Below are positions 3,370 through 64,000 of a stretch of DNA of 64,000 nt, piece by piece; within the stretch, counting starts at the first letter, position 1, and every line of letters begins with the position of its first letter. The position numbers and the translations under genes were made by a program. The notes beneath the pieces are model-generated. The model was given only the letters and a program-made list of their open reading frames with translations. It searched no databases and was not told the origin of the DNA. Where the stretch lies: NCBI GenBank assembly GCA_964521915.1, contig CAZFTP010000001.1:67611-131610 (forward strand), given 5' to 3'. This stretch comes from an uncultured Candidatus Marinamargulisbacteria bacterium (lineage in GTDB: Bacteria; Margulisbacteria; Marinamargulisbacteria; CAZFTP01).

Positions 3370-3750
3370 TCACATTTCAATCGTACAAGTGGCATCAATA
3401 CCACCACGGGTGTTATAGATAGAAGTTACTTTAAGATAGTGTGGATTGAGAATTTTTTTAATGTCTTGAAAGATTCTATCTGTTACACCTTCTTGATAAA
3501 TCCCAACGTTTCTAAAAGAAACAAAATAATATTTCAAAGATTTTAACTCTACGCATAGTTTATCTGGAATATATTCAATTTTTACATGTGCAATATCCGG
3601 TAACCCAGAAAAAGGACATACCGCAGAAAATTCTTTGGTCTCGTTAAGAATATGTTGTCTTTCTCCTTCATATGGAAAGGTTTCTAAAAAATCAGTTCTG
3701 ATTTTATCTTCAGAATCAAATGTAAATTTTTTACCTTCAGCGAATATCAT
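3370..3750 (-). CDS. queF: NADPH-dependent 7-cyano-7-deazaguanine (preQ0) reductase
   Basis: 126 aa; CPFSGLPD catalytic Cys motif and ELKSLKYYF motif typical of type-I QueF. Confidence 0.85.
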
Positions 3751-3887
3751 TGTTGCTCCTTTTTATGTATACCCGTGGGGCGAAGCCCCACGGGTATACG
3801 AGAGAAATTGTTTTGCCCTGCCGGGCGGGCTTTAAGGCTTCGCCTTAAAAATCCTTTTTTTCTAAGGGGCTGCGCCTCTTAAACCCC
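3751..3887. repeat. GC-rich mosaic intergenic repeat cluster (modules A and B) between queF and the amidotransferase gene
   Basis: Perfect 33-nt hairpin at 3767-3799 (gtatacccgtggggc-gaa-gccccacgggtatac) plus ttctaaggggctgcgcctcttaaacccc unit; related copies at at least 8 other loci. Confidence 0.85.
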
Positions 3888-4457
3888 TTAAATATAATAG
3901 GCAAGAAAATTTTTAAGAATTTTCTTGCCTGGTTCAGTTAAAATAGATTCCGGGTGAAACTGAATTCCTTCAATCGGAAATTTTTTATGCCTAACGCCCA
4001 TAATAATTTTGTCTTTGGTCCAAGCAGAAATTTCTAAATCATCAGCTAAATTGTTATTATCTATAACCAAAGAATGGTATCTGGTAGCAATAAAAGGGTC
4101 TTCTATATCTTTAAAAATCGTTTTATTATCATGAAAAATTTCTGATGTTTTCCCATGCATTAAACTTGGTGCATAAGTAATTTTTGAACCAAAAACTTGA
4201 CCAATGGCTTGATGCCCCAAACAAACACCCAAAATCGGAATTTTAGGTCCTAATTTTTCTACAACTTCTTGAGATATTCCTGCATGTTCTGGTCTACCTG
4301 GCCCTGGTGAAATTACTAAATATTTTGGTTTTAATTTTTCGATTTCTTCAACGCTTAAAACGTCATTACGAATTACCTTAATATCTTGCCCAAGCTCACC
4401 AAAGTATTGGACTAGGTTATAAGTAAATGAATCATAATTATCAATAATTAATAGCAT
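3888..4457 (-). CDS. glutamine amidotransferase component II of anthranilate/aminodeoxychorismate synthase (TrpG/PabA type)
   Basis: MLLIIDNYDSFTYNL N-terminus, GVCLGHQ catalytic Cys, HPES motif; start moved to the internal ATG at 4457, which is preceded by AAGGAAA. Confidence 0.85.
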   Translation of the reverse strand: MLLIIDNYDSFTYNLVQYFGELGQDIKVIRNDVLSVEEIEKLKPKYLVISPGPGRPEHAGISQEVVEKLGPKIPILGVCLGHQAIGQVFGSKITYAPSLMHGKTSEIFHDNKTIFKDIEDPFIATRYHSLVIDNNNLADDLEISAWTKDKIIMGVRHKKFPIEGIQFHPESILTEPGKKILKNFLAYYI

Positions 4458-4493
4458 TAGTATTTCCTTGTATCTCCATTGGGCTACGCCCAA

Positions 4494-4719
4494 TGGAGAT
4501 ACGAAAAAGATATTTTTCTAAGGGACTCCGTCCCTTAAACCCTGTGGGGCTTCGCCCCGAGAACTAACAAGGTTTTTCTAAGGGGGCAAGCCCCTTCAAC
4601 CCCCAAAAATCATGTTAATCATTTAATCATGCGAATCCTGGTTCAGACAGTTCTCCGTCCCTTAAACCCTAGGTTTTATTTATGTATACCCGGGTGGCTC
4701 CGCCACCCGGGTATACGAA
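4494..4719. repeat. GC-rich mosaic repeat cluster (modules B, C, A) inserted between the component I and II synthase genes
   Basis: Units gggactccgtccc, ggggcaagcccc and gggcttcgcccc; ATCAT array at 4606-4650; perfect hairpin at 4684-4716 (gtatacccgggtggc-tcc-gccacccgggtatac). Confidence 0.85.
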
Positions 4720-6123
4720 TTACAAAATCGCTTGCAACAACGCGTAAGCTTTGTGGCAAGTTTCTTGATATTCCTTTTCAGGGTCAGAATCTGTTACAAT
4801 TCCAGCGCCAGCTTGAACATAAAGCTTACCAGCTTTTGCTAGAATAGTCCTAATAATAATACAAAAATTTAGATTATCTTGAAAATCAAAATAACCCATG
4901 GCACCGGCATATGGTCCGCGTTCACAAGGTTCCAGTTCTTCAATAATTTCCATAGCCCTAATTTTAGGCGCACCACTTACTGTGCCAGCTGGAAAAGTTG
5001 CCTTAAAAAGATCAAAAGCATCAAATTCGAGTTTTAATTTGCCAGTAACTTTAGTAACCATATGAATTACCCGAGAATATTTTTCAATATCAAACATATT
5101 TTCGGTTTTTACTTCATCAGCTACTCGGTTTAAATCGTTTCTGGCTAAATCTACCAGCATAATGTGTTCTGCTCTTTCTTTCTCATCTTGCAATAAATCG
5201 GCTATTACTTCCGGCTCTTTTAAAAAGTCATCCGGTCTTTGACGCGTACCTGCTATTGGTCTTAATTCTGCTATTCGATTATCGGATCTTACCAAAATTT
5301 CCGGCGAAGTACCAATAATCTGAAATTCAGGAGTATTATAGTAAAACATGTATGGTGAAGGGTTAATAAAACGTAATTTCCGGTAAATATCAAACGGGTT
5401 TTCTTTGGATTCAAAACTAAATTTCTGAGATAAAACTAGCTGAAAAATATCACCCTCAAAAATATAGTTTTTAGCTTTTTCAACTGCTTTTTTAAAATCT
5501 TCTTTTTTAAAATTACTTTGAATTTTTTCAAAAGGAATATGCTTTTGAATATTAGTTAAGAGTTTATTCTCACCCTGAAGTGGTTTTAAAATTCTTTTTT
5601 CAATTTCCGCTATTTTTTGTTTTGCTTTTTGTTCATCCTCTTTTTCAGCTAAAACTAAAATTATTACTTTTCTTTTTACATGGTCAAAAATTACCAGTGA
5701 ACCTGGAAAAAGAAAATGCATTAAAGGAAAATCAGTTTTTTCTTTATCTCGTTTATTGATTTTTTCAATATGATGAATTATCTCCCAACTAAAAAAACCG
5801 ATTGCACCACCAAAAAAATCCGGTAATAAAGGATCTTTTTTTACATCAAATTGGTGGTTTAGATTTCTAAGAATACTAATAGGGTTCTCTTTGGATTTAG
5901 ATGTTTTGTTTTCTAAAGTTATGGTTGTTTCATTATAATCATTTGTAACTTGGCAAAACGGATCAAAACCAATGAAGGAAAATCTCGCTAAATTTTCACC
6001 ACCAGTTACACTTTCTAATAAAAAGCTATTAGGTACATTAAGTTTAAGATAAAGCGAAACCGGAGTTTCCAAATCATCTAAGATTTCTTTATAAAAGGGA
6101 AAAAGTAATTTTTTTTCTGTCAT
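4720..6123 (-). CDS. anthranilate / para-aminobenzoate synthase component I (TrpE/PabB family)
   Basis: 467 aa chorismate-binding enzyme; C-terminal GTVSGAPK...PCERGPYAGAMGY...GAGIV motifs; no other trp genes nearby, so PabB is possible. Confidence 0.8.
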   Translation of the reverse strand: MTEKKLLFPFYKEILDDLETPVSLYLKLNVPNSFLLESVTGGENLARFSFIGFDPFCQVTNDYNETTITLENKTSKSKENPISILRNLNHQFDVKKDPLLPDFFGGAIGFFSWEIIHHIEKINKRDKEKTDFPLMHFLFPGSLVIFDHVKRKVIILVLAEKEDEQKAKQKIAEIEKRILKPLQGENKLLTNIQKHIPFEKIQSNFKKEDFKKAVEKAKNYIFEGDIFQLVLSQKFSFESKENPFDIYRKLRFINPSPYMFYYNTPEFQIIGTSPEILVRSDNRIAELRPIAGTRQRPDDFLKEPEVIADLLQDEKERAEHIMLVDLARNDLNRVADEVKTENMFDIEKYSRVIHMVTKVTGKLKLEFDAFDLFKATFPAGTVSGAPKIRAMEIIEELEPCERGPYAGAMGYFDFQDNLNFCIIIRTILAKAGKLYVQAGAGIVTDSDPEKEYQETCHKAYALLQAIL

Positions 6124-9774: not shown

Positions 9775-11175
9775 ATGGCCAAAAACACACTTTATAACAA
9801 AGTCTGGGATCTTCATAAAATTGCTACTTTACCAACAGGACAAGATCAGATTTTTATTGGTTTGCATTATATGCACGAAGTTACAAGCCCAGCCGCTTTT
9901 TCTTTTTTAAGAGAACGAAAAGAAAAAGTGTTATTACCTCACCGCAATTTTGCTACTTACGATCACGTAATCCCTACGGATGATCAATCCCGTCCATTTA
10001 AAGACCAAGAAGCAGAAATTATGGCAAGTACCATTGAAAAAAATACAAAAGAATTTGGCATTACTTTTTTTGGTTTAAATTCCGGTAAAGAAGGTGTTGT
10101 CCATATTATTGGACCGGAGCATGGAATCACTAAACCAGGTATGATTATTGCTTGTGGAGATAGTCACACCAGTACGCATGGCGCGTTTGGCTCTTTGGCA
10201 TTTGGCATCGGAACTACAGAAGTAAGCATGGTTTTAGAAACTCAAACCTTAGCTTTGAATCCGTTAAAAGTACGTAAAATTCAATTTAACGGTACTATGC
10301 AAAAAGGGGTTTCTGCTAAAGATTTAATTTTAAAAGTAATTCAAGTTTTAGGTGTAAATGGTGGTTTAGGTTATGCTTATGAATTTAGCGGTGATGTAAT
10401 CAGTAAAATGAACATGGATGAAAGAATGACTATCTGCAATATGAGTATTGAGGGTGGAGCAAGAATTGGGTATATTAACCCAGATCAAATTACTTTTGAT
10501 TATATTAAAGATCGTGAATATGCACCAAAAGGGGCTGATTTCGATAAAGCTGTAAAATTTTGGCATTCAATAGCAAGTGATAAAGACGCAGTTTATGATG
10601 ATGTAGTAGAATTTGATGTGTCAAAAATTGAACCAATGATAACTTGGGGTATTAACCCAGGTATGGTCATGGGAATTAGCGAAAAAATCCCGATGCTAAA
10701 AGATTTGTCAGAAGCAGAACAAAAACATATTAAGCATGCTTTAGATTATATGAAATTTAAAGAAGGGCAATCACTTTTAGGTTTACCAGTAGATGTAGTA
10801 TTTATTGGGTCTTGTACTAACGGCCGAATGACAGACTTTAGGATTGCTGCAGAAATCATGAAAGGTAAAAAAGTTGCTGATAATGTTAAATGTTTGGTTG
10901 TACCTGGTTCTGCTGCCATTAAAAAGCAAGCAGAAGCAGAAGGCTTAGACAAAATATTTATTGATGCAGGTGCTGAGTGGCGTTATGCGGGTTGTTCGAT
11001 GTGTTTGGCGATGAACCCAGATAAGTTAATCGGAGATCAAATTAGCGTTTCAACTAGTAATCGTAACTTTATTGGCAGGCAAGGTAGTTCTACAGGTAGA
11101 ACTATTTTGGCTAGCCCGGCAGTTGCTGCCATCACCGCTATTAACGGTAAAATTAAGGGACCTTCGGTCCCTTAG
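9775..11175 (+). CDS. leuC: 3-isopropylmalate dehydratase large subunit
   Basis: 466 aa aconitase-family protein; [13 protein letters not shown] and GSCTNGR motifs. The last codons and stop (KGPSVP*) are encoded by a module-B-like repeat unit gggaccttcggtccc. Confidence 0.9.
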
Positions 11176-55127: not shown

Positions 55128-56414
55128 ATGATCGATACTATCGGTAATAGCATGGCTGATATTAGAAGTGTGCCTGTAATTTGGCCTACTTCTAAAGAAA
55201 AAGTTAAAGAGACTAAACAAACAGAAGAAAGCCAACAATCTTCCAGACAAGTTTCTACTAAATCGCCTACCAGTAGTCCGGCTACTGAATCAGCTACTGC
55301 CAGCCAAACAGCTCAAGCCGCTCAAAAAGCACAAACTGCCCCGCCGCCGCCTGCTACCAGAAATATGTCAATGGCAGATGTCGTTGATTATTTATTTCAA
55401 GCAAAAATTGCTAATACAGAAGAAAACAAATTACTAGCCAGCTTTATGATGCAACACGGAATTGAACTTTCAGAAGCAAATTTTAATTCCCTTTTTAAAC
55501 TTACTAAAGGTGAAAAAAATGCTAATATGCTCGAATCTGCTGTAATAAACTTAGGTAAAGGTCTTAATGATGCGCCTAAAGGAGCAGATATTCTTAGCAA
55601 TTTTTTACAAGAAAACCCGCAATTACAACAACAAATGGTTACTGCCAGTCAAAACATTGCTAATTTACAATCTGCTTTAAACTCAACCCAACAATTAATG
55701 AATCCTGGTTTAATGTCAGGCTTACTTTCTTTGTTAAGTGAAATGGATAACAATTTTAAAAAATTATTGAAATCAGCTCAAGAAGGAAAAACCGCTATTA
55801 ATGAAATTAATCGCGGTGAAATGATTAAAAACATCAAATCTTTCTCACAATTATTACAAGGTTTAGAACAAAAATTAGCTGAAACTAATCAATTAGACAG
55901 CCCAGAAGCCAAAGCGTTACAAGAAAAAATCATGCTCCTCAAAAAAAGTTTAAACGAAGTTCAAGAAAATTTAATTTCACAGACCATTATATCAAAAGAC
56001 TCTAATAGATCAATTTCTTCAATAAATGATAGATTTGCTTATTGGCAATTACCAAACCCTTTTGACAAAAACAATCAAATTGAAATTGCTATCAGAAAAG
56101 ACCCCCATAAAAACAAAGGAGAAATTGACTCTTCAAAAACCAGAATTGTATTAAAAGTAAATACTCCGGAAATCGGGGAAATAAGTATTATTATTGATAT
56201 TTTAGATAAAAAAATCTGGTATATTTTTAATACAGAATCTGAAGAAACAAATCATTTTATAAAAAAAATGCACGCTGATTTAATAAAACAAATGGAAGCT
56301 TTAAATTATCACGTTGCCGGTTTCCAAGCAATAAAAAAGAAAATTGATTTTAAAAAATTTATTTTACCAACTGTAAATTTAGATAATATGATAAGGATAA
56401 GTACAGAAGTATGA
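55128..56414 (+). CDS. fliK: flagellar hook-length control protein FliK-like
   Basis: Low-complexity Q/S/T/A-rich N-terminus; C-terminal Flg_hook-like segment (EIAIRKDPHKNKGEIDSSKTRIVLKVNTPEIGEISIIID); synteny with flhB-C-like gene. Confidence 0.55.
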   Translation: MIDTIGNSMADIRSVPVIWPTSKEKVKETKQTEESQQSSRQVSTKSPTSSPATESATASQTAQAAQKAQTAPPPPATRNMSMADVVDYLFQAKIANTEENKLLASFMMQHGIELSEANFNSLFKLTKGEKNANMLESAVINLGKGLNDAPKGADILSNFLQENPQLQQQMVTASQNIANLQSALNSTQQLMNPGLMSGLLSLLSEMDNNFKKLLKSAQEGKTAINEINRGEMIKNIKSFSQLLQGLEQKLAETNQLDSPEAKALQEKIMLLKKSLNEVQENLISQTIISKDSNRSISSINDRFAYWQLPNPFDKNNQIEIAIRKDPHKNKGEIDSSKTRIVLKVNTPEIGEISIIIDILDKKIWYIFNTESEETNHFIKKMHADLIKQMEALNYHVAGFQAIKKKIDFKKFILPTVNLDNMIRISTEV

Positions 56415-56770
56415 GTGAACCAAGCACAAAGCCTAAAAAAGTAAAAAAACATTTAGACGAATTAGATATTAAAGATCCGAAAAAATTAATGGCTGTTGCA
56501 GTAAAATACGATGTTAATACTGACAAAGCTCCTAAAATTATTGCTAGCGGAAAATCTACTTTTGCAGAAGAAATACTTAAACTGGCAGAGGAAAATAATA
56601 TTCCGCTTTATGAAGATCCTACCTTAGCTAACTTATTGGCAAAATTAGATGTTGATTCCGAAATACCGCCGGAATTATATACTTTAGTGGCTGAAGTCTT
56701 AGCGTTTGTTTATCAGCTAGATAAAATGATCAAGAAAAAAGAATCATTAAGAAAAAAACTAATAAAATGA
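56411..56770 (+). CDS. FlhB C-terminal-domain protein (FlhX/YlqH-like)
   Basis: AVAVKYD...APKIIASG...LAEENNIPLYEDPTLANLL...IPPELYTLVAEVLAFVY matches the FlhB C-terminal domain. Confidence 0.75.
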   Translation: MSEPSTKPKKVKKHLDELDIKDPKKLMAVAVKYDVNTDKAPKIIASGKSTFAEEILKLAEENNIPLYEDPTLANLLAKLDVDSEIPPELYTLVAEVLAFVYQLDKMIKKKESLRKKLIK

Positions 56771-57555
56771 GAAAATTATTTTTTTTATTCATAATAGTAA
56801 GCTTAATTTCCGAAAACCTATTTGCAACACAATTAAATAACCGGAATACTTATATTTCTGACCCTGCTTTATATTATTCTGTTAATGGAATGAATATGTA
56901 TCAAAAAAATTTTGAGGCTTTAATGCAAAATTCGGTTAATAGTAATACACCAGGTTATAAAGAAATCAATGTTTCTAATATTGCTAAAGGAAAATCTTTT
57001 GGTAATGTTGTTTATTACAAATTTTATCAAGGTACCGCAATACAAAGCGGCGGCAGTTTAGATTTCTTAATTCAAGGTCCAGCTTTTTTTGTTTTATCTT
57101 GTCCATGGGGTTTAGGATATACCAGAGATGGTCGGTTTACGATTGATGCTAACGGAAAACTAGTAACTTATGGAACTAACTTACCTGTATTAGGTGAACA
57201 AGGTGAAATTTTTATTGGAAAAGGAAAAATTAAAATCAATGAAAAAGGCGGTATTTATGTTGATAATACTTTAATGGATTCTTTTCTTTTAATCGACTTT
57301 AAAGATGTTTCCCAATTAAAATCTATTAATGGCAGTGTTTTTTATTTGAATGACCCTAATTTAGCTCCCAAAATCACAGAAATCGATACCCTTTCCAGTT
57401 TAAAACAAGGTTATTACGAGGCAAGTAATGTCAGTATTACTAACCAAGTAAGTCAATTACCGATTGTAAAAAACATCTATGATGCTAACAGTAAAACTGT
57501 TAAAATTATATTAAAAAGCATGAGTTCCGGAATACAAATGGGCTCTGCACAATAA
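56767..57555 (+). CDS. flgF: flagellar basal-body rod protein FlgF-like (with N-terminal hydrophobic extension; start uncertain)
   Basis: NGMNMYQKNF...NSNTPGYK rod N-domain; C-terminal EASNVSITNQ. Confidence 0.7.
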   Translation: MRKLFFLFIIVSLISENLFATQLNNRNTYISDPALYYSVNGMNMYQKNFEALMQNSVNSNTPGYKEINVSNIAKGKSFGNVVYYKFYQGTAIQSGGSLDFLIQGPAFFVLSCPWGLGYTRDGRFTIDANGKLVTYGTNLPVLGEQGEIFIGKGKIKINEKGGIYVDNTLMDSFLLIDFKDVSQLKSINGSVFYLNDPNLAPKITEIDTLSSLKQGYYEASNVSITNQVSQLPIVKNIYDANSKTVKIILKSMSSGIQMGSAQ

Positions 57556-57568
57556 AAAGGAGAAAAAA

Positions 57569-58369
57569 ATGACTTTACAACAATTTTATATTGGTGCTAC
57601 CGGAATGGAATCATTCCAAACAGATTTAATGAATATTACAAACAATGTTTCTAACGCACAAACAGTTGGTTTTAAAAGCTCAAGAGTTGAATACGAAAAC
57701 TTATTCCCGCAAATTTTAGATCAAGTTGAAAACCAAGTTCAAGCTTATTATGATGAAAAATATAACAATGGTAATAATGCTAACCAAGAAATTGGCTCTG
57801 GGGTAAAAATATCTGGTGTTACCAAAGATTTTAAACAAGGCTCCATTCAAGTTACTGGTAAACAATTAGATTTAGCGATTGAAGGAGACGGTTTTTTTCA
57901 ATTTAGATTAATTGATGGTACAACAGTCTATTCTCGAGCAGGTAATTTACGAAAAAATACTGAAGGTTATTTAACAGACCCTAACGGACATTTATTAGAT
58001 CCAGCTATTAATATTCCTAATAACGTAACAAATCTTACTATTGATGCAGAAGGTAAAGTTTATAACAGCTCTGATAAAACCGAATTAGGTCAAATAACGC
58101 TTGCTACTTTTTCCAATCCATCAGAATTAAAAGCAATTGGTCAAAACCTCTTTTTGAAAACTGTTGGATCCGGTGAAGCTATAGTTAGTATACCAAGCCA
58201 TGATAATGTAGGCGCTATTGCACAAGGATCTTTAGAATTTTCTAATGTTGATGTAGTAAGCGAAATGATGCGTATGGTAATTACCCAAAGAGCATTTGAA
58301 GTAGTTAGTAAAATGGTTCAATCCGGCGAATCAATGCTTAGATCTGCCACTGATATTGCTAGAAGTTAA
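57569..58369 (+). CDS. flgG: flagellar distal rod protein FlgG
   Basis: GATGMESFQTDLMNITNNVSNAQTVGFK and LEFSNVDVVSEMMRMVITQRAFE motifs. Confidence 0.9.
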   Translation: MTLQQFYIGATGMESFQTDLMNITNNVSNAQTVGFKSSRVEYENLFPQILDQVENQVQAYYDEKYNNGNNANQEIGSGVKISGVTKDFKQGSIQVTGKQLDLAIEGDGFFQFRLIDGTTVYSRAGNLRKNTEGYLTDPNGHLLDPAINIPNNVTNLTIDAEGKVYNSSDKTELGQITLATFSNPSELKAIGQNLFLKTVGSGEAIVSIPSHDNVGAIAQGSLEFSNVDVVSEMMRMVITQRAFEVVSKMVQSGESMLRSATDIARS

Positions 58370-58494
58370 TGAATTTAAAAAATAACCCCTATATTTTTTA
58401 AATAATTATTATTAAACTATAAAATATCATAGAAAGAGCTCTTTTAAGAGACCTACTTATTTAGAAAAATTCCTCAATTCGCTCACCATTAATT

Positions 58495-58675
58495 TTACGA
58501 GGTATGCGCCTAATAGGGAAATAGTTATAGAATTTGGGGGGAAATACTTTAAGCATCTATGCCTAGTAAACCCCCGTTTCTGACCCGCCGTGCGTCTTTA
58601 CATGGGCAAACACGTAGGTTTGCCCGTACGTTTCTAGTTTCTGATCCCTCACTTTATTCCCCCCATCAAATAGCT
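58495..58675 (+). other. GC-rich structured element in the flgA leader (candidate cis-regulatory RNA or sRNA)
   Basis: Outer inverted repeat ttggggggaaata / tattcccccca; inner hairpin gggcaaac-acgtag-gtttgccc; repeated gtttctga; GC far above the flanking DNA. Confidence 0.4.
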
Positions 58676-58687
58676 TATAATTAATAA

Positions 58688-59434
58688 ATGTTATCTAATA
58701 AAAAAATGAAATCTTTTTTAAAAATTATTTTTTTTAGCCTAATTTTATTATTAACAACTCCTTTTTTTTGTTTTTGCTTAACTGCAAACGAAATAGTCAA
58801 TTACATTAATAATGAAATTACCAAAAAAATTATTATTGATTATCCAAATTACGAAAATCTCTCTGTAAGTACAAATATTAAAAATAACCACTTATTAAAA
58901 AAAATACCGGAAAAAACTAATTTTTGCAGTCTTAGTTTGAATAAAAAACCAATACCAATTGGAATTTCTATCATTAATGTGAATTTACTTGATAAAGAAA
59001 ATAAAATACTAGAAACAAAACCCTTAATTATTTATATTACGGCAAATGCAGATTTTGTTGTAACAACTAGATTAATTAATGCAAAAGAAATAATAAAAGA
59101 AGCTGATTTAGAAATAATTAATTTAGAAATAAACAATAAACCGCAAAATATCATTTTAAAAAAATCAGCTATCATTAATAAAGAAACAAAAGTAGGAATA
59201 CCAAAAGGATCTATTATTACGAATTCTATGATTCAAGAAGTGCCAATTATTAGAAAAGGTGAGAAAATTACTATGATTTATCTAAATAATAATATACAAT
59301 TAGTATTAAGGGCAACTGCGCTTGAAGATGGATGCTTAGGTTCTAAAATAAATGTTAAATTATCTGATTCTGCCCAAGTTTTTAAAGGAGAAATAATTGA
59401 AGCAAGAAAAGTTTTGGTTATTAGTAATAATTAG
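58688..59434 (+). CDS. flgA: flagellar basal-body P-ring formation chaperone FlgA
   Basis: Signal peptide; C-terminal SAF/FlgA domain (GEKITMIYLNN...ALEDGCLGSKINVK). Confidence 0.8.
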   Translation: MLSNKKMKSFLKIIFFSLILLLTTPFFCFCLTANEIVNYINNEITKKIIIDYPNYENLSVSTNIKNNHLLKKIPEKTNFCSLSLNKKPIPIGISIINVNLLDKENKILETKPLIIYITANADFVVTTRLINAKEIIKEADLEIINLEINNKPQNIILKKSAIINKETKVGIPKGSIITNSMIQEVPIIRKGEKITMIYLNNNIQLVLRATALEDGCLGSKINVKLSDSAQVFKGEIIEARKVLVISNN

Positions 59435-60020
59435 TTTATTTTTTTTAGCTGGTTTTTCTTCTTTTTTATCAGCGGATTCTCTTTGGAATAAAAAAAACGC
59501 ATCTCTTTTTAGCACCACAAAACCGCTACATATTGGAGATATTTTAACCATTATTATTTCAGAATCATCTACAGCAGTACAAGAAGCTGGCACTAAAACC
59601 AGCAAAGCATCAAATATTAATTCGAATTTATTTAGTAATTGGCAACAAGTAGCTCAAGTTTTAGGACAAAGTGAAATGATGCGGAAAAATCAAGACATAA
59701 AACTTGGCGGCGGAGATAGTTATTCTGGTACTGGGCAAACTTCCCGAAAACACAAAGTGGAAGCTATTATCACAGCTATTGTTAAAGAAATTTATGATAA
59801 TGGTACCGTATTAATTGCCGGCGAACATAATGTTAAGGTTAATGACGAAGTTGAAACAATCTGTATTTCCGGTATTATCAGAATTGAAGATGTTACTAGT
59901 GATAATACTATTTTTTCTTATCAAATGGCAAAAGCTGATATTTCCGTAAAAGGTCAGGGAGTAGTAGCATCTAAACAAACTCCAGGTATTTTAACTCAAT
60001 TATTTAACTGGTTATTTTAA
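59397..60020 (+). CDS. flgH: flagellar L-ring protein FlgH
   Basis: Signal peptide; SLWN...ASLF...KPLHIGDILTIIISE FlgH core. Confidence 0.85.
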   Translation: MKQEKFWLLVIISLFFLAGFSSFLSADSLWNKKNASLFSTTKPLHIGDILTIIISESSTAVQEAGTKTSKASNINSNLFSNWQQVAQVLGQSEMMRKNQDIKLGGGDSYSGTGQTSRKHKVEAIITAIVKEIYDNGTVLIAGEHNVKVNDEVETICISGIIRIEDVTSDNTIFSYQMAKADISVKGQGVVASKQTPGILTQLFNWLF

Positions 60021-61135
60021 TGCTAACTATAAAAAAAATGAAAAAAATAACTATTTTAACTTTAATTATCACTATCATTTTTAATTTCTTTTTTATGCTT
60101 AATAAAATTAATTCTTCAGCAACTGTAAGATTAAAAGATGTTTCTAAAATTGTTGAAGTAAGAGAAAACCAAATTTATGGTTTTGGTTTGGTTATGGGGT
60201 TACAGAATTCAGGAGATTCCAAAGCCATGCTTTTTACCAATAAAGCTTTAACTAATTTATTGAAAAAAATGGGAATCCCTCAAGATGGTAGAGAATATAC
60301 TTCCAGAAACATTGCCGCAGTTATGGTAACTGCTACTTTGCCCCCATTTATAAAAAAAGGACAAAAAATTGATGTTATTGTTTCTTCTATTGGTGATGCT
60401 AATAGTCTTGCTGGCGGTACTTTATTGCTGACTCCTTTAGAAGGTCCTGATAAAAAAATATACGCATTAGCACAAGGAGCTATTATTGTTGGCGGTTTAG
60501 CTGAAGCTTCTACTTATTCACGCATGATTAAAAACCAAGCAACCGTTGGTAGAATACAAGGCGGTGGGATTGTTGAAGAAGAAGTACCTGTAACTTTATC
60601 TGATAATAAAAATATCACTATTGCTCTAAATAAACCGAATTTTATTACAGCTTCTAGGGTAGAACAAGCATTAATAAAAGCTGGTTTTACTAATGCTATG
60701 GCTATTGATGCTTCTACTATTACAGTTCCTTTAGCGAATGCATCTTTAGTTAATACCATTGCCAAAATTGAATCAGTTAGTCTTACACCTGATGCTTCTA
60801 ATAAAGTGGTCATTAATGCTAAAACTGGAACTGTTGCTATTGGTGAAATGGTTAGACTTTCCCCGGTTGCTATAACTCATGGTAATATTTCAATTAAAAT
60901 TCTAGATGAAAAAGAATATAATGATTATTTTGGTTATTATGACCCGGTTAGAGAACGCAACCCTATTACCATCACAGAATCAAAAGCAAAATTTATTTAT
61001 TTAAAACCTGACGACAATTTATCTAGCTTAGTAAATGCATTAAACAAAGTTGGAACTACGCCAAGAGATATGATTTCTATTTTGCAAGCTTTAAAAGAAT
61101 CTGGTTCTTTAATTGGAGATATTGAAATAATATGA
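60020..61135 (+). CDS. flgI: flagellar P-ring protein FlgI
   Basis: 371 aa; signal peptide; RLKDVS...RENQIYGFGLVMGL...GD FlgI N-terminal signature. Confidence 0.9.
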   Translation: MLTIKKMKKITILTLIITIIFNFFFMLNKINSSATVRLKDVSKIVEVRENQIYGFGLVMGLQNSGDSKAMLFTNKALTNLLKKMGIPQDGREYTSRNIAAVMVTATLPPFIKKGQKIDVIVSSIGDANSLAGGTLLLTPLEGPDKKIYALAQGAIIVGGLAEASTYSRMIKNQATVGRIQGGGIVEEEVPVTLSDNKNITIALNKPNFITASRVEQALIKAGFTNAMAIDASTITVPLANASLVNTIAKIESVSLTPDASNKVVINAKTGTVAIGEMVRLSPVAITHGNISIKILDEKEYNDYFGYYDPVRERNPITITESKAKFIYLKPDDNLSSLVNALNKVGTTPRDMISILQALKESGSLIGDIEII

Positions 61136-61461
61136 TAAATTCTATTGATACATCTTATTTTATCGAAAAAAATTTAGAATCAGCTGATTACCAACGTCGT
61201 ATTCAAGCTAATAACAAAAAACAAAATATTGAAGAATTTGAAAAAATTCTCCTCAAAAAAGTTTATTTAGAATCTTTAATTGATAAAGATGAAGAAGAAG
61301 ACGAAGAAAACGATAGAGGTATATTATCCAGCGATAATTCATTATATAATGAAATGTTACTTGATCTTTATGCTCAACAATTAGCAAAACAAGATATTTT
61401 TAATTTGCAAAAAATTTATAATAAAAATGAACAAACAAAAAGTACCGAACCAAACAATTAA
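61132..61461 (+). CDS. rod-binding protein (FlgJ N-terminal-domain type)
   Basis: EEFEKILLKKVYLESL...SLYNEMLLDLYAQQLAK matches the Rod-binding family. Confidence 0.6.
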   Translation: MINSIDTSYFIEKNLESADYQRRIQANNKKQNIEEFEKILLKKVYLESLIDKDEEEDEENDRGILSSDNSLYNEMLLDLYAQQLAKQDIFNLQKIYNKNEQTKSTEPNN

Positions 61462-62206
61462 TATCACAGAACTCCAGCAAAAAGAAATTACCTCCAAAAA
61501 AAGGGAGACGAAAATTTCTGAAGAGTTTATTAAAGAACATATGTCTACAGTTGAATCTATTGCTTCTGTAATTATGTCTGGCAGTAAAACGCCTCCCGGC
61601 ATTTTTTATAATGATTTAATTAGTTGGGGGGTTGAAGGCTTAATTAAAGCTAAAAATAATTTTAAAGCTGATAAAGGGTCTCAGTTTAAAACATATGCTT
61701 ATTACCGTATTAGAGGTGAAATTTTAGATAAGTTGCGTCAGGAATGGTATTATCGAAACCCGACAGATTACAAATTACAGCAAGAAAAAATACAAAAAAG
61801 AATTGCCGAAGTTACTGAACAAGCTATTGATAATTCAGATAAAACCTCAGATAAAAGTATTAATGATAAAGTCAACGATTTAATTGCTAATTCTGCAGTA
61901 GTATATTTATTATCTTTAGATGACATTGAATCAATTACTAAAATTGAAGGCACGGGCGGCGACCCTGCAATTGAAATTATCGAAGAAGTAGACAGAAAAG
62001 AAAGTCATTCTTTATTATGGGAAGAAATTAATTTTTTAAATAAAGATGAAAAAAGATTAATTGAACTTTTTTATGTAAAAGACCAAAAACAAAAAGAAAT
62101 AGCGGAAATAATGCATTTATCCAGAAGCAAAGTATGCCGTATGCACATGAAAATATTAGACAAATTAAGAAGAAGGCTTGAAAAAAAACTTAATGCAGAT
62201 GAATAA
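61427..62206 (+). CDS. fliA: flagellar sigma factor sigma-28 (FliA)
   Basis: FKTYAYYRIRGEILDKLRQEWYYR region-2 signature of FliA; C-terminal HTH EIAEIMHLSRSKVCRM. Confidence 0.85.
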   Translation: MNKQKVPNQTINITELQQKEITSKKRETKISEEFIKEHMSTVESIASVIMSGSKTPPGIFYNDLISWGVEGLIKAKNNFKADKGSQFKTYAYYRIRGEILDKLRQEWYYRNPTDYKLQQEKIQKRIAEVTEQAIDNSDKTSDKSINDKVNDLIANSAVVYLLSLDDIESITKIEGTGGDPAIEIIEEVDRKESHSLLWEEINFLNKDEKRLIELFYVKDQKQKEIAEIMHLSRSKVCRMHMKILDKLRRRLEKKLNADE

Positions 62207-62233
62207 TATTATTATATAATATTAGGAGATAAC

Positions 62234-62551
62234 ATGGAGAATAAAACAATTAATTCTATTGTCTATGATAAGCCAATGCAAGGTTTAGCTAGTGCTATAA
62301 AAATAGCCACTAGAAAACAAGCCATTTATTCTTATAATATTTCTAATGCTTCTACCCCAGGGTTTAGACCAATTCGTTTTGAAGATGAATTAGAAGATGC
62401 AGAAACTAAAATTGAGAATCAAGAATTTAATATTGAAGAAGAAATGGCCAGAATGAATGAAAACAGATTGCAACACAGTGCTTTAGTCAGAATTTTATAT
62501 ACTAAAGCTCAATTAATGAGAAAAGTTGTAACTTTAGGTAAAGGAGGATAA
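62234..62551 (+). CDS. flgB: flagellar proximal rod protein FlgB
   Basis: 105 aa; N-terminal ...ASAIKIATRKQAIYSYNISNASTPGFRP and C-terminal rod segment. Confidence 0.85.
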   Translation: MENKTINSIVYDKPMQGLASAIKIATRKQAIYSYNISNASTPGFRPIRFEDELEDAETKIENQEFNIEEEMARMNENRLQHSALVRILYTKAQLMRKVVTLGKGG

Positions 62552-62553
62552 AA

Positions 62554-63069
62554 ATGACTAAATCAGTTTATTTTTTTCTATTGATATTTACCATGATTTT
62601 AATGTTTAGTCTTATTTGTTTGGCAGAGGATCTCTCTAAATTCAAAACTGATAATGATGATGATATTTTATCTAGAAAAGATTTAGGCACCGATGATGCT
62701 TTAAAATTAAGTACTAGCGGGGTTTTAGCTCAAAAATTACAATTAAGGGTAAGTGCGGAAAATATTGCTAATGCAACAACCATAAAAACAGAAAATGGCA
62801 TACCCTATCAGAAAAAATATTTGATTTTAAAAACTTCTCAAAAAGGAGTAAAAGTTGCCGGCATTAGAAAAAGTACAGAACCTTTCAAAGAAGTTTATGA
62901 TCCGGCTAACCCATTATCAGATAAAAACGGTTTTATTTATTTACCTAACGTTGATGTCTCCCAAGAAATGGTCCAAATAAGTTTAACGAATGTTTTATAT
63001 GAAGCTAATACTACTGCTTATAAATCTGCTAAAGCTATGTATCAGCAATCTTTAGATTTATTAAAATAA
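62554..63069 (+). CDS. flgC: flagellar rod protein FlgC with a roughly 50-aa N-terminal hydrophobic extension
   Basis: RVSAENIANATT and C-terminal LPNVDVSQEMVQISLTNVLYEANTTAYK FlgC signatures; start fixed by AAAGGAGG 7 nt upstream. Confidence 0.85.
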   Translation: MTKSVYFFLLIFTMILMFSLICLAEDLSKFKTDNDDDILSRKDLGTDDALKLSTSGVLAQKLQLRVSAENIANATTIKTENGIPYQKKYLILKTSQKGVKVAGIRKSTEPFKEVYDPANPLSDKNGFIYLPNVDVSQEMVQISLTNVLYEANTTAYKSAKAMYQQSLDLLK

Positions 63070-63079
63070 GGAGAGAAAA

Positions 63080-63424
63080 ATGAATATTAACCCGATTCAA
63101 GCAATTAATTTAGAAAAAGAAAAAAACGACGAAATTTTCAACACTCAAAATATTAGTGTAATTAACCCGATAATAAACCCTATAGAATCAATTAGTCGGG
63201 CGCCCTTTCAAATTATGTTAGAAAATGCGGTTGATGCTTTACAAAATGTTAGTAATACGGAACAAGAAAATAACAAATTAATCGATGAATTTATCCAAGG
63301 GAAAAGATCTGTTGATGAAGTTTTAATTTCTACCAATCAATTAAATTTAGAAATGTCTTTATTAACTACAGTAGTAAATACAACTGTACAAACTTTTAAA
63401 GAAATTCAACAAATGCAGGTATAA
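63080..63424 (+). CDS. fliE: flagellar hook-basal body protein FliE
   Basis: C-terminal TTVVNTTVQTFKEIQQMQV (FliE ...MQV ending). Confidence 0.85.
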   Translation: MNINPIQAINLEKEKNDEIFNTQNISVINPIINPIESISRAPFQIMLENAVDALQNVSNTEQENNKLIDEFIQGKRSVDEVLISTNQLNLEMSLLTTVVNTTVQTFKEIQQMQV

Positions 63425-63448
63425 TTTAATTTATAAAAAAGGTTAAAT

Positions 63449-64000
63449 ATGGCAGAAGAAATAAATAATAATGATGATTTAGATTTAGGTTCCCCGATTG
63501 TTCCTGAAACAAAAAAACGTAAGCATTTACCTTTTTGGTTTTCAGCCGGATTATTTTCTTTAATCATAATAGTCATTATTGTGGGGTTAATTTTCATTCT
63601 TTTTAAAGGACATTCTTCACCTCATTCTAAAAAACAGTTAAGTTTAGATAACGTTAGTACTAGTTTAGACGACAGAAATTCTTCTGCAGAATCATCGACA
63701 AAACAAAAACAACTTGAAAAAGAAATTGAACAGCTTAAAAAAAATTTAAAAGCTCAAGAAGAAGCAAAAAAGAAAAAAGAAAAACCTACAAAAATAGATT
63801 ATGTATTACTCTATGTAAATTTGGATGCTAATCAAACTGCCGCTGTTATAAAAGAACTAAGTATTGCGGAAGTCTCTTTTGATTTAAAACAAAAAGGGAA
63901 ATATTATGACCTCTGGGTAGATAGAAATAAACAAGAAGAATCAAAAAACATTCTTGCTGTTAGAGGCTTACCAAGCGGCGGCATTAAAGGATACGAGTTA
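63449..64000 (+). CDS. fliF: flagellar MS-ring protein FliF, N-terminal portion (3' end outside window)
   Basis: TM segment FWFSAGLFSLIIIVIIVGLIFIL; YVLLYVNLDANQTAAVIKEL...NILAVRGLPSGGIKGYEL FliF motif; ORF runs off the window end. Confidence 0.8.
   Translation, partial: MAEEINNNDDLDLGSPIVPETKKRKHLPFWFSAGLFSLIIIVIIVGLIFILFKGHSSPHSKKQLSLDNVSTSLDDRNSSAESSTKQKQLEKEIEQLKKNLKAQEEAKKKKEKPTKIDYVLLYVNLDANQTAAVIKELSIAEVSFDLKQKGKYYDLWVDRNKQEESKNILAVRGLPSGGIKGYEL

Follow-up and report, generated by a model that had tools for sequence, protein, structure and literature searches.

Predicted Sec-type signal peptides on proximal rod proteins of the flagellum in an uncultured Marinamargulisbacteria bacterium and its relatives

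We analyzed a 64,000-nucleotide stretch of DNA (here called the window) from an uncultured Candidatus Marinamargulisbacteria bacterium (contig CAZFTP010000001.1), in which a single co-directional flagellar operon spans positions 55128-64000. The operon carries, in this order, a fliK-like gene, a stand-alone gene for the C-terminal domain of FlhB (FlhB-C), a flgF-like gene, flgG, flgA, flgH, flgI, a gene in the position of flgJ, fliA, flgB, flgC, fliE, and the start of fliF. Two of the encoded proteins, the proximal rod protein FlgC and the FlgF-like protein, begin with hydrophobic, signal-like extensions, which a sequence-only reading of the window had pointed out and which we find again both in the sequence and in related bacteria. 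The extensions are conserved, bear every sequence hallmark of export by the general secretory (Sec) pathway and of cleavage by signal peptidase I (SPase I), and are restricted to proximal-rod proteins. Flagellins and flagellar operons have already been recorded in Margulisbacteria. The guanine-plus-cytosine (GC) content of the window DNA is 26-35%, and the nearest named relatives are Candidatus Margulisiibacteriota metagenome-assembled genomes, with 64% identity in FlgC by BLAST (69% in our alignment A1) and 64% identity in the FlgF-like protein. Matches in a scan of genomes likewise included a Margulisiibacteriota metagenome-assembled genome, together with unclassified ones.

The product of flgC combines a recognizable FlgC with an additional N-terminus. 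It scores 109.3 bits against the NCBIfam FlgC model TIGR01395 (cutoff 102.1), with residues 49-171 covering model positions 3-137 of 137, and 25.5 bits against Flg_bbr_C (PF06429; cutoff 23) over residues 125-169. PF00460 was not matched at E<=0.01 in the Pfam search; the rod motif SAENIANATT (ANxxN) is readable in the sequence. Residues 52-169 align with residues 9-132 of Salmonella FlgC, and the FlgC chains in the PDB match with E=5e-20 to 7e-12. Judged by the start of the TIGR01395 match, the Salmonella alignment, and the AlphaFold2 model, the extension is about 43-46 residues long, slightly shorter than the roughly 50 residues first proposed. It consists of a basic MTK, a 21-residue uncharged hydrophobic stretch ending in C-L-A/E (the slash marks the predicted cut), and a polar linker of about 20 residues. 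AlphaFold2 (mean predicted local distance difference test score, pLDDT, 82) gives a separate hydrophobic helix at residues 2-28, disorder at 27-43, and a complete FlgC fold from residue 46, with a helix at 46-72, strands between 88 and 130, and a helix at 135-170, all at pLDDT 86-94. The linker includes an insertion of about 15 residues that is private to this genome, no homologue in A1 having one; it is acidic, polar, and predicted to be disordered, and it follows the predicted cleavage site and precedes the rod domain.

The FlgF-like protein begins with MRKLFFLFIIVSLISENLFA/TQ, with L and A at positions -3 and -1 (L-F-A/T), and its match to the rod family starts at residue 34-35. It scores 92.5 against TIGR03506 (cutoff 70.25); its best match is the FlgF model TIGR02490, at 102.5 bits, which is under the cutoff of 178.5. 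Compared with solved chains, its family profile matches FlgG at E=1e-37 and FlgF at E=1e-24. The name flgF-like reflects the position of the gene, which is immediately upstream of flgG here and in all related loci.

Signal-like N-termini in AT-rich DNA invite the suspicion that translation actually begins near the rod domain and that the hydrophobic stretch is an untranslated spacer left open in frame. Spacers in 29% GC DNA do translate to sequence rich in F, I, L, K, and N, and flgC has ATG codons at positions 14 and 17, so the initial statement that no later ATG or GTG exists went too far. All later start codons (TTG at codon 10, ATG at 14 and 17, TTG at 23) fall within the hydrophobic stretch, none of them has a Shine-Dalgarno sequence, and codons 24-60 contain no ATG, GTG, or TTG. 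In flgF, no ATG other than the annotated start lies upstream of the conserved domain; the first internal one is inside it. The annotated starts are marked by a strong Shine-Dalgarno sequence and stop-start coupling: AAAGGAGG is separated by 6 nt from the flgC ATG at 62554, the flgB stop (62549-62551) precedes this ATG by 2 nt, and the stop of the FlhB-C gene overlaps the flgF-like start codon as ATGA. We estimate that a stop-free frame of 45 codons is about 2% likely in such DNA. In orthologues the start is marked by a TAATG overlap or a strong Shine-Dalgarno sequence, and several starts, such as that of locus L004 with a single ATG in the open frame, have no alternative. We therefore rejected a mis-called start, given the lack of usable downstream starts, the Shine-Dalgarno and stop-start signals, and the retention of the region in 26 loci. 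An open hydrophobic region of the same layout in those loci, including loci of 43-49% GC that build it from G, V, A, and L, effectively refutes the annotation artefact, to which we assign only a very slight chance. The assumption that the annotated starts are real is borne out.

Both presequences show the n-h-c layout of a signal peptide, namely a basic n-region, a hydrophobic core, and a c-region with small residues at -3 and -1. The net charge of the n-region is +2 in FlgC (MTK) and +3 in the FlgF-like protein (MRK), and the uncharged run is 21 and 12 residues, respectively, where an h-region is expected to span about 7-20. The best 10-residue hydropathy windows average 3.00 in FlgC and 3.29 in the FlgF-like protein, on par with those of FlgA, FlgH, and FlgI (3.35, 3.32, and 3.15), which are known to be Sec-exported, are encoded in the same operon, and each have a -3/-1 site. 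The internal negative controls FlgG and FliE reach 0.54 and 1.12. Across six loci the corresponding values were 2.3-3.7 for presequence-bearing FlgB, FlgC, and FlgF, 2.2-3.75 for most FlgA, FlgH, and FlgI proteins (three were lower owing to a mis-set start), and at most 1.7 for FlgG, FliE, FliK, FlhB-C, and FliA. The proposal that the extensions are Sec-like was thus well founded.

The c-regions point to cleavage. A -3/-1 site follows the hydrophobic core in all 34 presequence-type FlgC proteins (C-L-A/E in the window), and alanine occupies -1 in 28 of the 34, compared to 17.2 +/- 2.7 (maximum 25) over 500 shuffles; alanine makes up 9% of presequence residues and 82% of -1 positions. In many c-regions Pro, Gly, or Ser precedes the site (for example SP-LLA/Q, SP-IAA/Q, and SSGAWA/N). 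The distance from the predicted mature N-terminus to the rod motif has a median of 26 residues, compared to 24 in 112 canonical FlgC proteins. Because predicted cleavage restores a near-canonical FlgC length, the presequence looks as if it had been added to a complete rod protein.

Three other types of signal were considered and rejected. For a lipoprotein (signal peptidase II) signal, the lipobox [LVI][ASTVI][GAS]C is absent, S-L-I-C in FlgC having Ile at -1; no Cys is conserved across the FlgC homologues, and the first 30 residues of the FlgF-like protein contain none. For a twin-arginine translocation signal, neither window protein has RR in its first 30 residues and no such pair is conserved in the homologue N-termini. 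The motif of type IV pilin-like (class III) signals, a basic leader up to G followed by F or M and Glu at +5, is absent from both proteins and from the alignments.

To assess conservation, we gathered 26 related loci from genomes, metagenomes, and assemblies and labeled their genes by similarity to the window proteins; some are near-duplicates, and by our estimate about 20 are distinct. The order flgB, flgC, fliE, fliF is common to all of them. The FlgC presequence is present in 26 of 26 loci, if one counts six genes that our script scored negative only because the hydrophobic window starts at the start codon, and that we read by eye as MLIKVIIISLILLSPIAA/Q and similar. The FlgF-like protein carries one in 15 of 16 loci. 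At the same time, no hydrophobic presequence was found on FlgG (0 of 16 loci), on FlhB-C (0 of 15), or on FliA, FliE, and FliK at the loci compared, and the expected one was found on FlgH (18/18) and FlgI (19/19) in full-length alignments. All five close FlgC homologues (58-75% identity by BLAST) bear n-h-c presequences that differ in sequence, and 12 of 13 FlgF-like homologues in alignment A2 (25-64% identity) share the layout, with Ala at -1. Presequences are therefore conserved in physicochemical character and not in sequence, the homologues being 30-75% identical.

Composition does not account for this pattern. The measured GC content of the related loci is 31-49%, and at 43-49% GC the presequences are made of G, V, A, and L, as in MKKAVVLFLLLTLASPLLA/QGLDDAFKIS of L007. 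Because these relatives retain the layout with other residues, the presequence is not a by-product of AT-rich DNA, and we rejected a composition artefact. A hydrophobic N-terminus as such is common, occurring in 16 of the 51 large open reading frames of the window. The presequence nevertheless goes beyond chance because it is kept on exactly FlgC and the FlgF-like protein over 31-49% GC and is absent from FlgG, FliE, FliK, FlhB-C, and FliA.

Presequence-type FlgC is unusual. A profile search over 1.84 billion representative proteins returned 3374 FlgC-like proteins, and we classified the best 150 of these 3374. In 129 of the 150 the N-terminus is canonical, short, and without a hydrophobic leader (this class comprises proteins with the rod motif at positions 5-50, mode 25, or with a variant that our pattern missed). 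In the other 21 the motif is moved to positions 41-60 behind a hydrophobic leader, and these 21 include 12 of the 13 matches with E<1e-30; the thirteenth, P0031, looks N-terminally truncated. A hydrophobic leader is accordingly as unusual on a rod protein as had been supposed. A few presequence-type FlgC proteins are encoded outside Margulis-type synteny, most clearly at L013. The operon there has the classical order flgB-flgC-fliE-fliF-fliG-fliH-fliI-fliJ, FlgC alone bears a leader in it, and only one flgC is present; other outlying cases are P0052, P0040, P0060, and P0134. A homologue search with P0052 returned mainly canonical Firmicutes FlgC, plus three further presequence-type proteins (around P0219). 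By mature-domain distances the nearest neighbor is also presequence-type for 30 of 32 presequence-type FlgC proteins, and in a neighbor-joining tree of mature domains the presequence-type proteins do not form one clean clade.

FlgB has no presequence in this genome, and none is possible because a fliA stop lies in frame 27 nt upstream. The nearest relatives L012, L016, and L017 likewise have FlgB without a presequence, and 17 of 24 related loci have a signal-like FlgB N-terminus (for example MKILSVACVLLAVWGSALVAQ in L002), a distribution that points to gain or loss of the FlgB presequence within the clade. The small rod-binding protein encoded at the flgJ position is signal-like in L002 (14109-14540) and L007 (8430-8828); the N-termini of its counterparts in the window and in L004 are not signal-like. 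Among FlgF-like genes, L007 has two in tandem upstream of flgG (3539-4345 and 4405-5214), both signal-like, and L003 has an orphan (10001-10882; P0023, 293 aa) with a signal-like N-terminus and a long insertion, flanked by non-flagellar genes (phosphate transporter and two-component system) and about 10 kb from a FliMN_C gene.

Table 1. Features of the flagellar operon, in window coordinates
Feature	Position	Strand	Basis or remark
flgC, proximal rod protein with presequence, 171 aa	62554..63069	+	TIGR01395; Flg_bbr_C at residues 125-169
Shine-Dalgarno sequence AAAGGAGG of flgC, within the 3' end of flgB	62540..62547	+	read from sequence
Predicted Sec/SPase I signal peptide of FlgC, residues 1-24 (MTK + SVYFFLLIFTMILMFSLI + CLA), predicted cut after Ala24	62554..62625	+	hydropathy, charge, -3/-1 site
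Polar acidic linker of FlgC, residues 25-45 (EDLSKFKTDNDDDILSRKDLG)	62626..62688	+	pLDDT <50 at residues 27-43
Private insertion in the linker, residues 28-43 (SKFKTDNDDDILSRKD)	62635..62682		alignment A1
Rod domain of FlgC, canonical, residues 46-171 (beta domain between N- and C-terminal helices)	62689..63066	+	AlphaFold2
flgF-like rod gene (FlgE/F/G subfamily) with presequence, 262 aa	56767..57555	+	TIGR03506, LlgE_F_G_D1, Flg_bbr_C
Predicted Sec/SPase I signal peptide of FlgF-like protein, residues 1-20 (MRK + LFFLFIIVSLI + SENLFA), predicted cut after Ala20	56767..56826	+	hydropathy, -3/-1 site
Stand-alone FlhB C-terminal-domain gene	56411..56770	+	PF01312 Bac_export_2, profile positions 261-335 of 335 only
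flgG, distal rod, canonical N-terminus (internal negative control)	57569..58369	+	TIGR02488, 253.1 bits from residue 6
flgA, flgH, flgI, known Sec-exported (internal positive controls)	58688..61135	+	Pfam ChapFlgA, FlgH, FlgI
flgH	59397..60020	+	
Gene at flgJ position	61132..61461		
fliA, sigma-28 type	61427..62206	+	
flgB without presequence, 105 aa	62234..62551	+	Flg_bb_rod and TIGR01396 N-terminal matches from residues 16-19
fliE, canonical N-terminus (internal negative control)	63080..63424	+	PF02049 and TIGR00205 matches
fliF, start	63449..64000	+	

We consider it probable, with considerable room for doubt, that FlgC and the FlgF-like protein are made with translated Sec-type signals, which signal peptidase I removes from otherwise complete rod proteins. 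From the sequences we infer a route of Sec export, cleavage, and rod assembly from the periplasm. The presequence would direct the nascent protein to SecYEG, the protein would pass through the inner membrane, and signal peptidase I would cut FlgC after Ala24 and the FlgF-like protein after Ala20. A subunit of essentially canonical length would thereby be freed into the periplasm, with FlgC of this genome retaining a 20-residue flexible acidic tail, and would dock from the periplasmic side on the base of FliE and FlgB that projects, inside the MS ring, from the FliPQR gate. The type III channel of the flagellum would continue to serve FliE, FlgG, the FlgB of this genome, and the later axial proteins, which have ordinary N-termini. 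In relatives FlgB would also be exported by Sec in most cases, and the FlgJ-like protein in two loci. The D0 domain of rod proteins is described as the inner core (PMC12403130), and, to judge from solved basal bodies, some 11-17 additional 20-residue hydrophobic helices retained at the narrow rod channel would be expected to block export. Assembly from the periplasm is plausible. FlgB-Bla and FlgC-Bla give ampicillin resistance, showing that the type III system releases rod subunits into the periplasm before the outer membrane is breached (PMC9307174). The growing rod tip should therefore be accessible from the periplasm, because rod subunits are normally released there during rod growth. The chances are evenly poised, in our view, for the wider proposal that the proximal rod of the whole lineage, comprising Margulisbacteria-type loci and a few other uncultivated groups, is built from Sec-exported, signal-peptidase-processed subunits added from the periplasm.

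Several considerations weigh against Sec export of these proteins. We know of no axial flagellar protein that uses Sec. A Sec-delivered subunit would have to reach a site inside the MS-ring collar without a channel, a known chaperone, or a cap. Our signal-peptide calls rest on heuristics of our own, namely hydropathy, charge, and the -3/-1 site. The hydrophobic stretch of the window FlgC, with 21 uncharged residues, is long for a cleaved signal and compatible with an anchor. Our view of the genome is limited to 64 kb, and a second, canonical flgC or flgF elsewhere is conceivable. Finally, work on early substrates shows that N-terminal hydrophobicity is not foreign to type III export (PMC8983047). 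The last three of these considerations each lead to a different explanation of the presequences.

The first such explanation, which the sequence-only reading had offered beside a lineage-specific assembly feature, is that the presequence is an uncleaved signal anchor whose helix stays in the inner membrane and tethers FlgC, FlgF, and in relatives FlgB, whether in a pool awaiting assembly or permanently, linking the proximal rod to lipid inside the MS ring. AlphaFold2 draws the long stretch of the window FlgC as one 27-residue helix, and the private 20-residue flexible linker of this genome could serve as a tether. In most orthologues, however, the hydrophobic core is just 10-16 residues long, and many have a helix-breaking Pro, Gly, or Ser ahead of the -3/-1 site. 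The predicted cleavage site lies only 3-8 residues from the conserved rod helix in most orthologues, which, to judge from solved basal bodies, is too short a spacing to reach from the bilayer to the rod positions of FlgC and FlgF. An attached transmembrane helix would also clash where the N-terminal helices of the rod line the channel, and the enrichment of Ala at -1 would have no purpose without cleavage. We regard anchoring as unlikely; a cleaved signal fits better, and the suggestion of a lineage-specific assembly feature has gained support.

A little less likely still is an enlarged type III signal, that is, an exaggerated early-substrate signal that opens the FliPQR gate while the proteins continue to be exported through the channel. 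At these loci the N-termini of FlgG, FliE, and FliK are ordinary, so the type III system of this clade needs no such sequences. A basic n-region followed by a hydrophobic core of 10-20 residues is captured by the signal recognition particle or SecA, and these presequences would be expected to be taken in the same way. A conserved Ala motif at -3/-1, located exactly at the start of the canonical rod domain, would be left unexplained. The presence of a stand-alone FlhB C-domain gene directly upstream of flgF could be taken in support of this explanation, since substrate docking in the clade may be unusual. The early-substrate signal that has been described (Bryant et al. 2022, PMC8983047) resembles the presequences in being hydrophobic, at the extreme N-terminus, and upstream of the rod helix. 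For rod and hook subunits to be exported, small non-polar residues are essential 3-7 positions from the N-terminus and must sit at least 19-30 residues from the gate-recognition motif (PMC8983047). That signal nonetheless comprises 4-5 small non-polar residues and not a helix of transmembrane length, and it has no basic n-region or -3/-1 motif (PMC8983047). The gate-recognition motif itself is uninformative here. The position equivalent to F49 of Salmonella FlgC is Leu or Phe in the clade (alignment A1), and F49 is required for assembly and not for secretion (PMC9307174); because it is dispensable for secretion even in Salmonella, loss of the motif cannot discriminate Sec use.

We give a similarly low probability to the possibility that the presequence-bearing proteins are neofunctionalized paralogues, exported by Sec to decorate or stabilize the basal body from the periplasm while canonical copies encoded elsewhere form the rod. 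Besides the 64-kb limit, the tandem FlgF-like genes of L007, the orphan of L003, and the score of the FlgF-like protein under the FlgF equivalog cutoff would all be in keeping with paralogy. Yet the signal-bearing genes fill the canonical slots (flgB-flgC-fliE-fliF and flgF-flgG) at every locus, and no second flgC or flgF was found in the 64-kb window or within +/-10 kb at the related loci. FlgC also exceeds its NCBIfam equivalog cutoff and has as its mature part a full-length FlgC with conserved terminal helices, and the only flgC of the classical operon of L013 is signal-bearing.

Comparison with characterized flagella places the predicted Sec signals on rod proteins apart from what has been described. 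Canonical FlgB, FlgC, and FlgF of Salmonella, Vibrio, and Borrelia (7CGO, 7E80, 7NVG, 8Z5S, 12DU) are like the window proteins in family, fold, and gene order, and canonical FlgC shares the terminal helices and the rod motif (SAENIANATT). In those rod proteins the N-terminus lies 21-28 residues ahead of the motif, a hydrophobic leader is absent, and type III export involves no cleavage, whereas the window clade adds a Sec-like presequence of 20-30 residues and, in this genome, a 20-residue linker. FlgH of the L ring, FlgI of the P ring, and FlgA belong to the same operon, have a presequence of this type by all our measures, and are assembled around the rod in the periplasm; a role of Sec in assembly of the P and L rings has been stated (PMC13344023). 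Unlike FlgC and FlgF, these proteins are not of the axial family, and their rings lie outside the rod and do not form the channel-bearing shaft. In spirochaetes, the sheath protein FlaA is exported by Sec with a cleaved signal and assembles in the periplasm onto a core of type III-exported FlaB. FlaA, however, is unrelated to axial proteins and coats the filament from outside, whereas here it is axial-family subunits that bear the signal. In some lineages FlgJ is split, and the peptidoglycan hydrolase that partners the rod cap, for example SltF of Rhodobacter, is a Sec substrate and not a part of type III-exported FlgJ (compare PMC8517470). Such systems set a precedent for moving a function in rod assembly from type III to Sec, although the protein concerned is an enzyme there and a structural subunit here. 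Residues 1-21 of FliP are a cleaved Sec-type signal ending in Ala/Gln (PMC12403130), a junction (A/Q) that several presequence-type FlgC proteins share; FliP, though a core flagellar protein, is embedded in the membrane as part of the gate and is not a secreted axial subunit. None of the known Sec-dependent flagellar parts (FlgH, FlgI, FlgA, FliP, FlaA, and the FlgJ hydrolase partners) is an axial-family subunit, and our full-text search of the literature turned up no description of rod, hook, or filament proteins with a Sec signal.

The operon and its relatives have further peculiarities. The stand-alone FlhB-C protein has 119 aa, and its match to the FlhB/YscU profile is confined to the last 75 positions, which correspond to the cleaved C-terminal domain where early type III substrates dock. 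Its gene lies between fliK and the signal-bearing flgF, and orthologues occupy this place in 14 related loci, which is every locus that reaches so far. In the window, flgH apparently begins at TTG and overlaps the end of flgA by 38 nt; in related contigs (for example L012) the signal peptides of FlgH and FlgI are often truncated by gene callers. The sigma-28-type fliA sits between the ring genes and flgB, with a 35-nt overlap with the preceding gene, and this unusual placement is kept in all Margulis-type loci. FliF of the window has a long region N-terminal to its YscJ/FliF domain, made up of a charged leader, a transmembrane segment, and a Lys/Glu-rich stretch; its orthologue in L012 (10820-13018) has 732 aa, far above the usual ~550. 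In L008 (10075-10626), L009 (12213-12794), L014 (11136-11633), and L002 (18412-18966), fliF is followed by a gene for a short protein (165-193 aa). These proteins match the N-terminal or middle domain of FliG only, and the torque-generating C-terminal domain was not detected in them. The short gene is followed by fliH-fliI-fliJ in L009 and L014, by fliH and, on the full contig, fliI in L008, and by the end of the cluster in L002. FliG of L013 is full-length (344 aa), and the post-fliF gene of L012 encodes a 175-aa membrane protein without a Pfam match. Locus L005 (NZWE01000008.1) is labeled Actinomycetota, yet its flagellar operon is Margulis-type, has L- and P-ring genes, and has a GC content of 31%; this label is probably due to mis-binning or mis-classification.

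Textbooks and structural models of flagellar assembly uniformly assume that every axial protein is pushed unfolded through the central channel by the type III gate and folds at the distal tip. Sec export of FlgC and FlgF, which we propose on computational grounds and for uncultivated bacteria, would surprise specialists of the flagellum. Even if the presequences were uncleaved or served as type III signals, they would constitute a new class of early-substrate signal, and they occur in loci whose relatives have other peculiarities, such as the stand-alone FlhB C-domain and the short FliG N-terminal proteins. If our interpretation is true, type III export is not, as the rule has it, the route of every axial flagellar protein. 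Rod assembly would then be a hybrid of inside-out addition, for FliE, FlgG, hook, and filament, and outside-in addition, for FlgC, FlgF, often FlgB, and the FlgJ-like protein, and self-assembly of rod subunits would be independent of delivery through the channel. Such a hybrid would bear on how the first rod layer is nucleated on FliE and FliPQR, how the order of substrates is enforced, and how the axial family evolved from a common ancestor.

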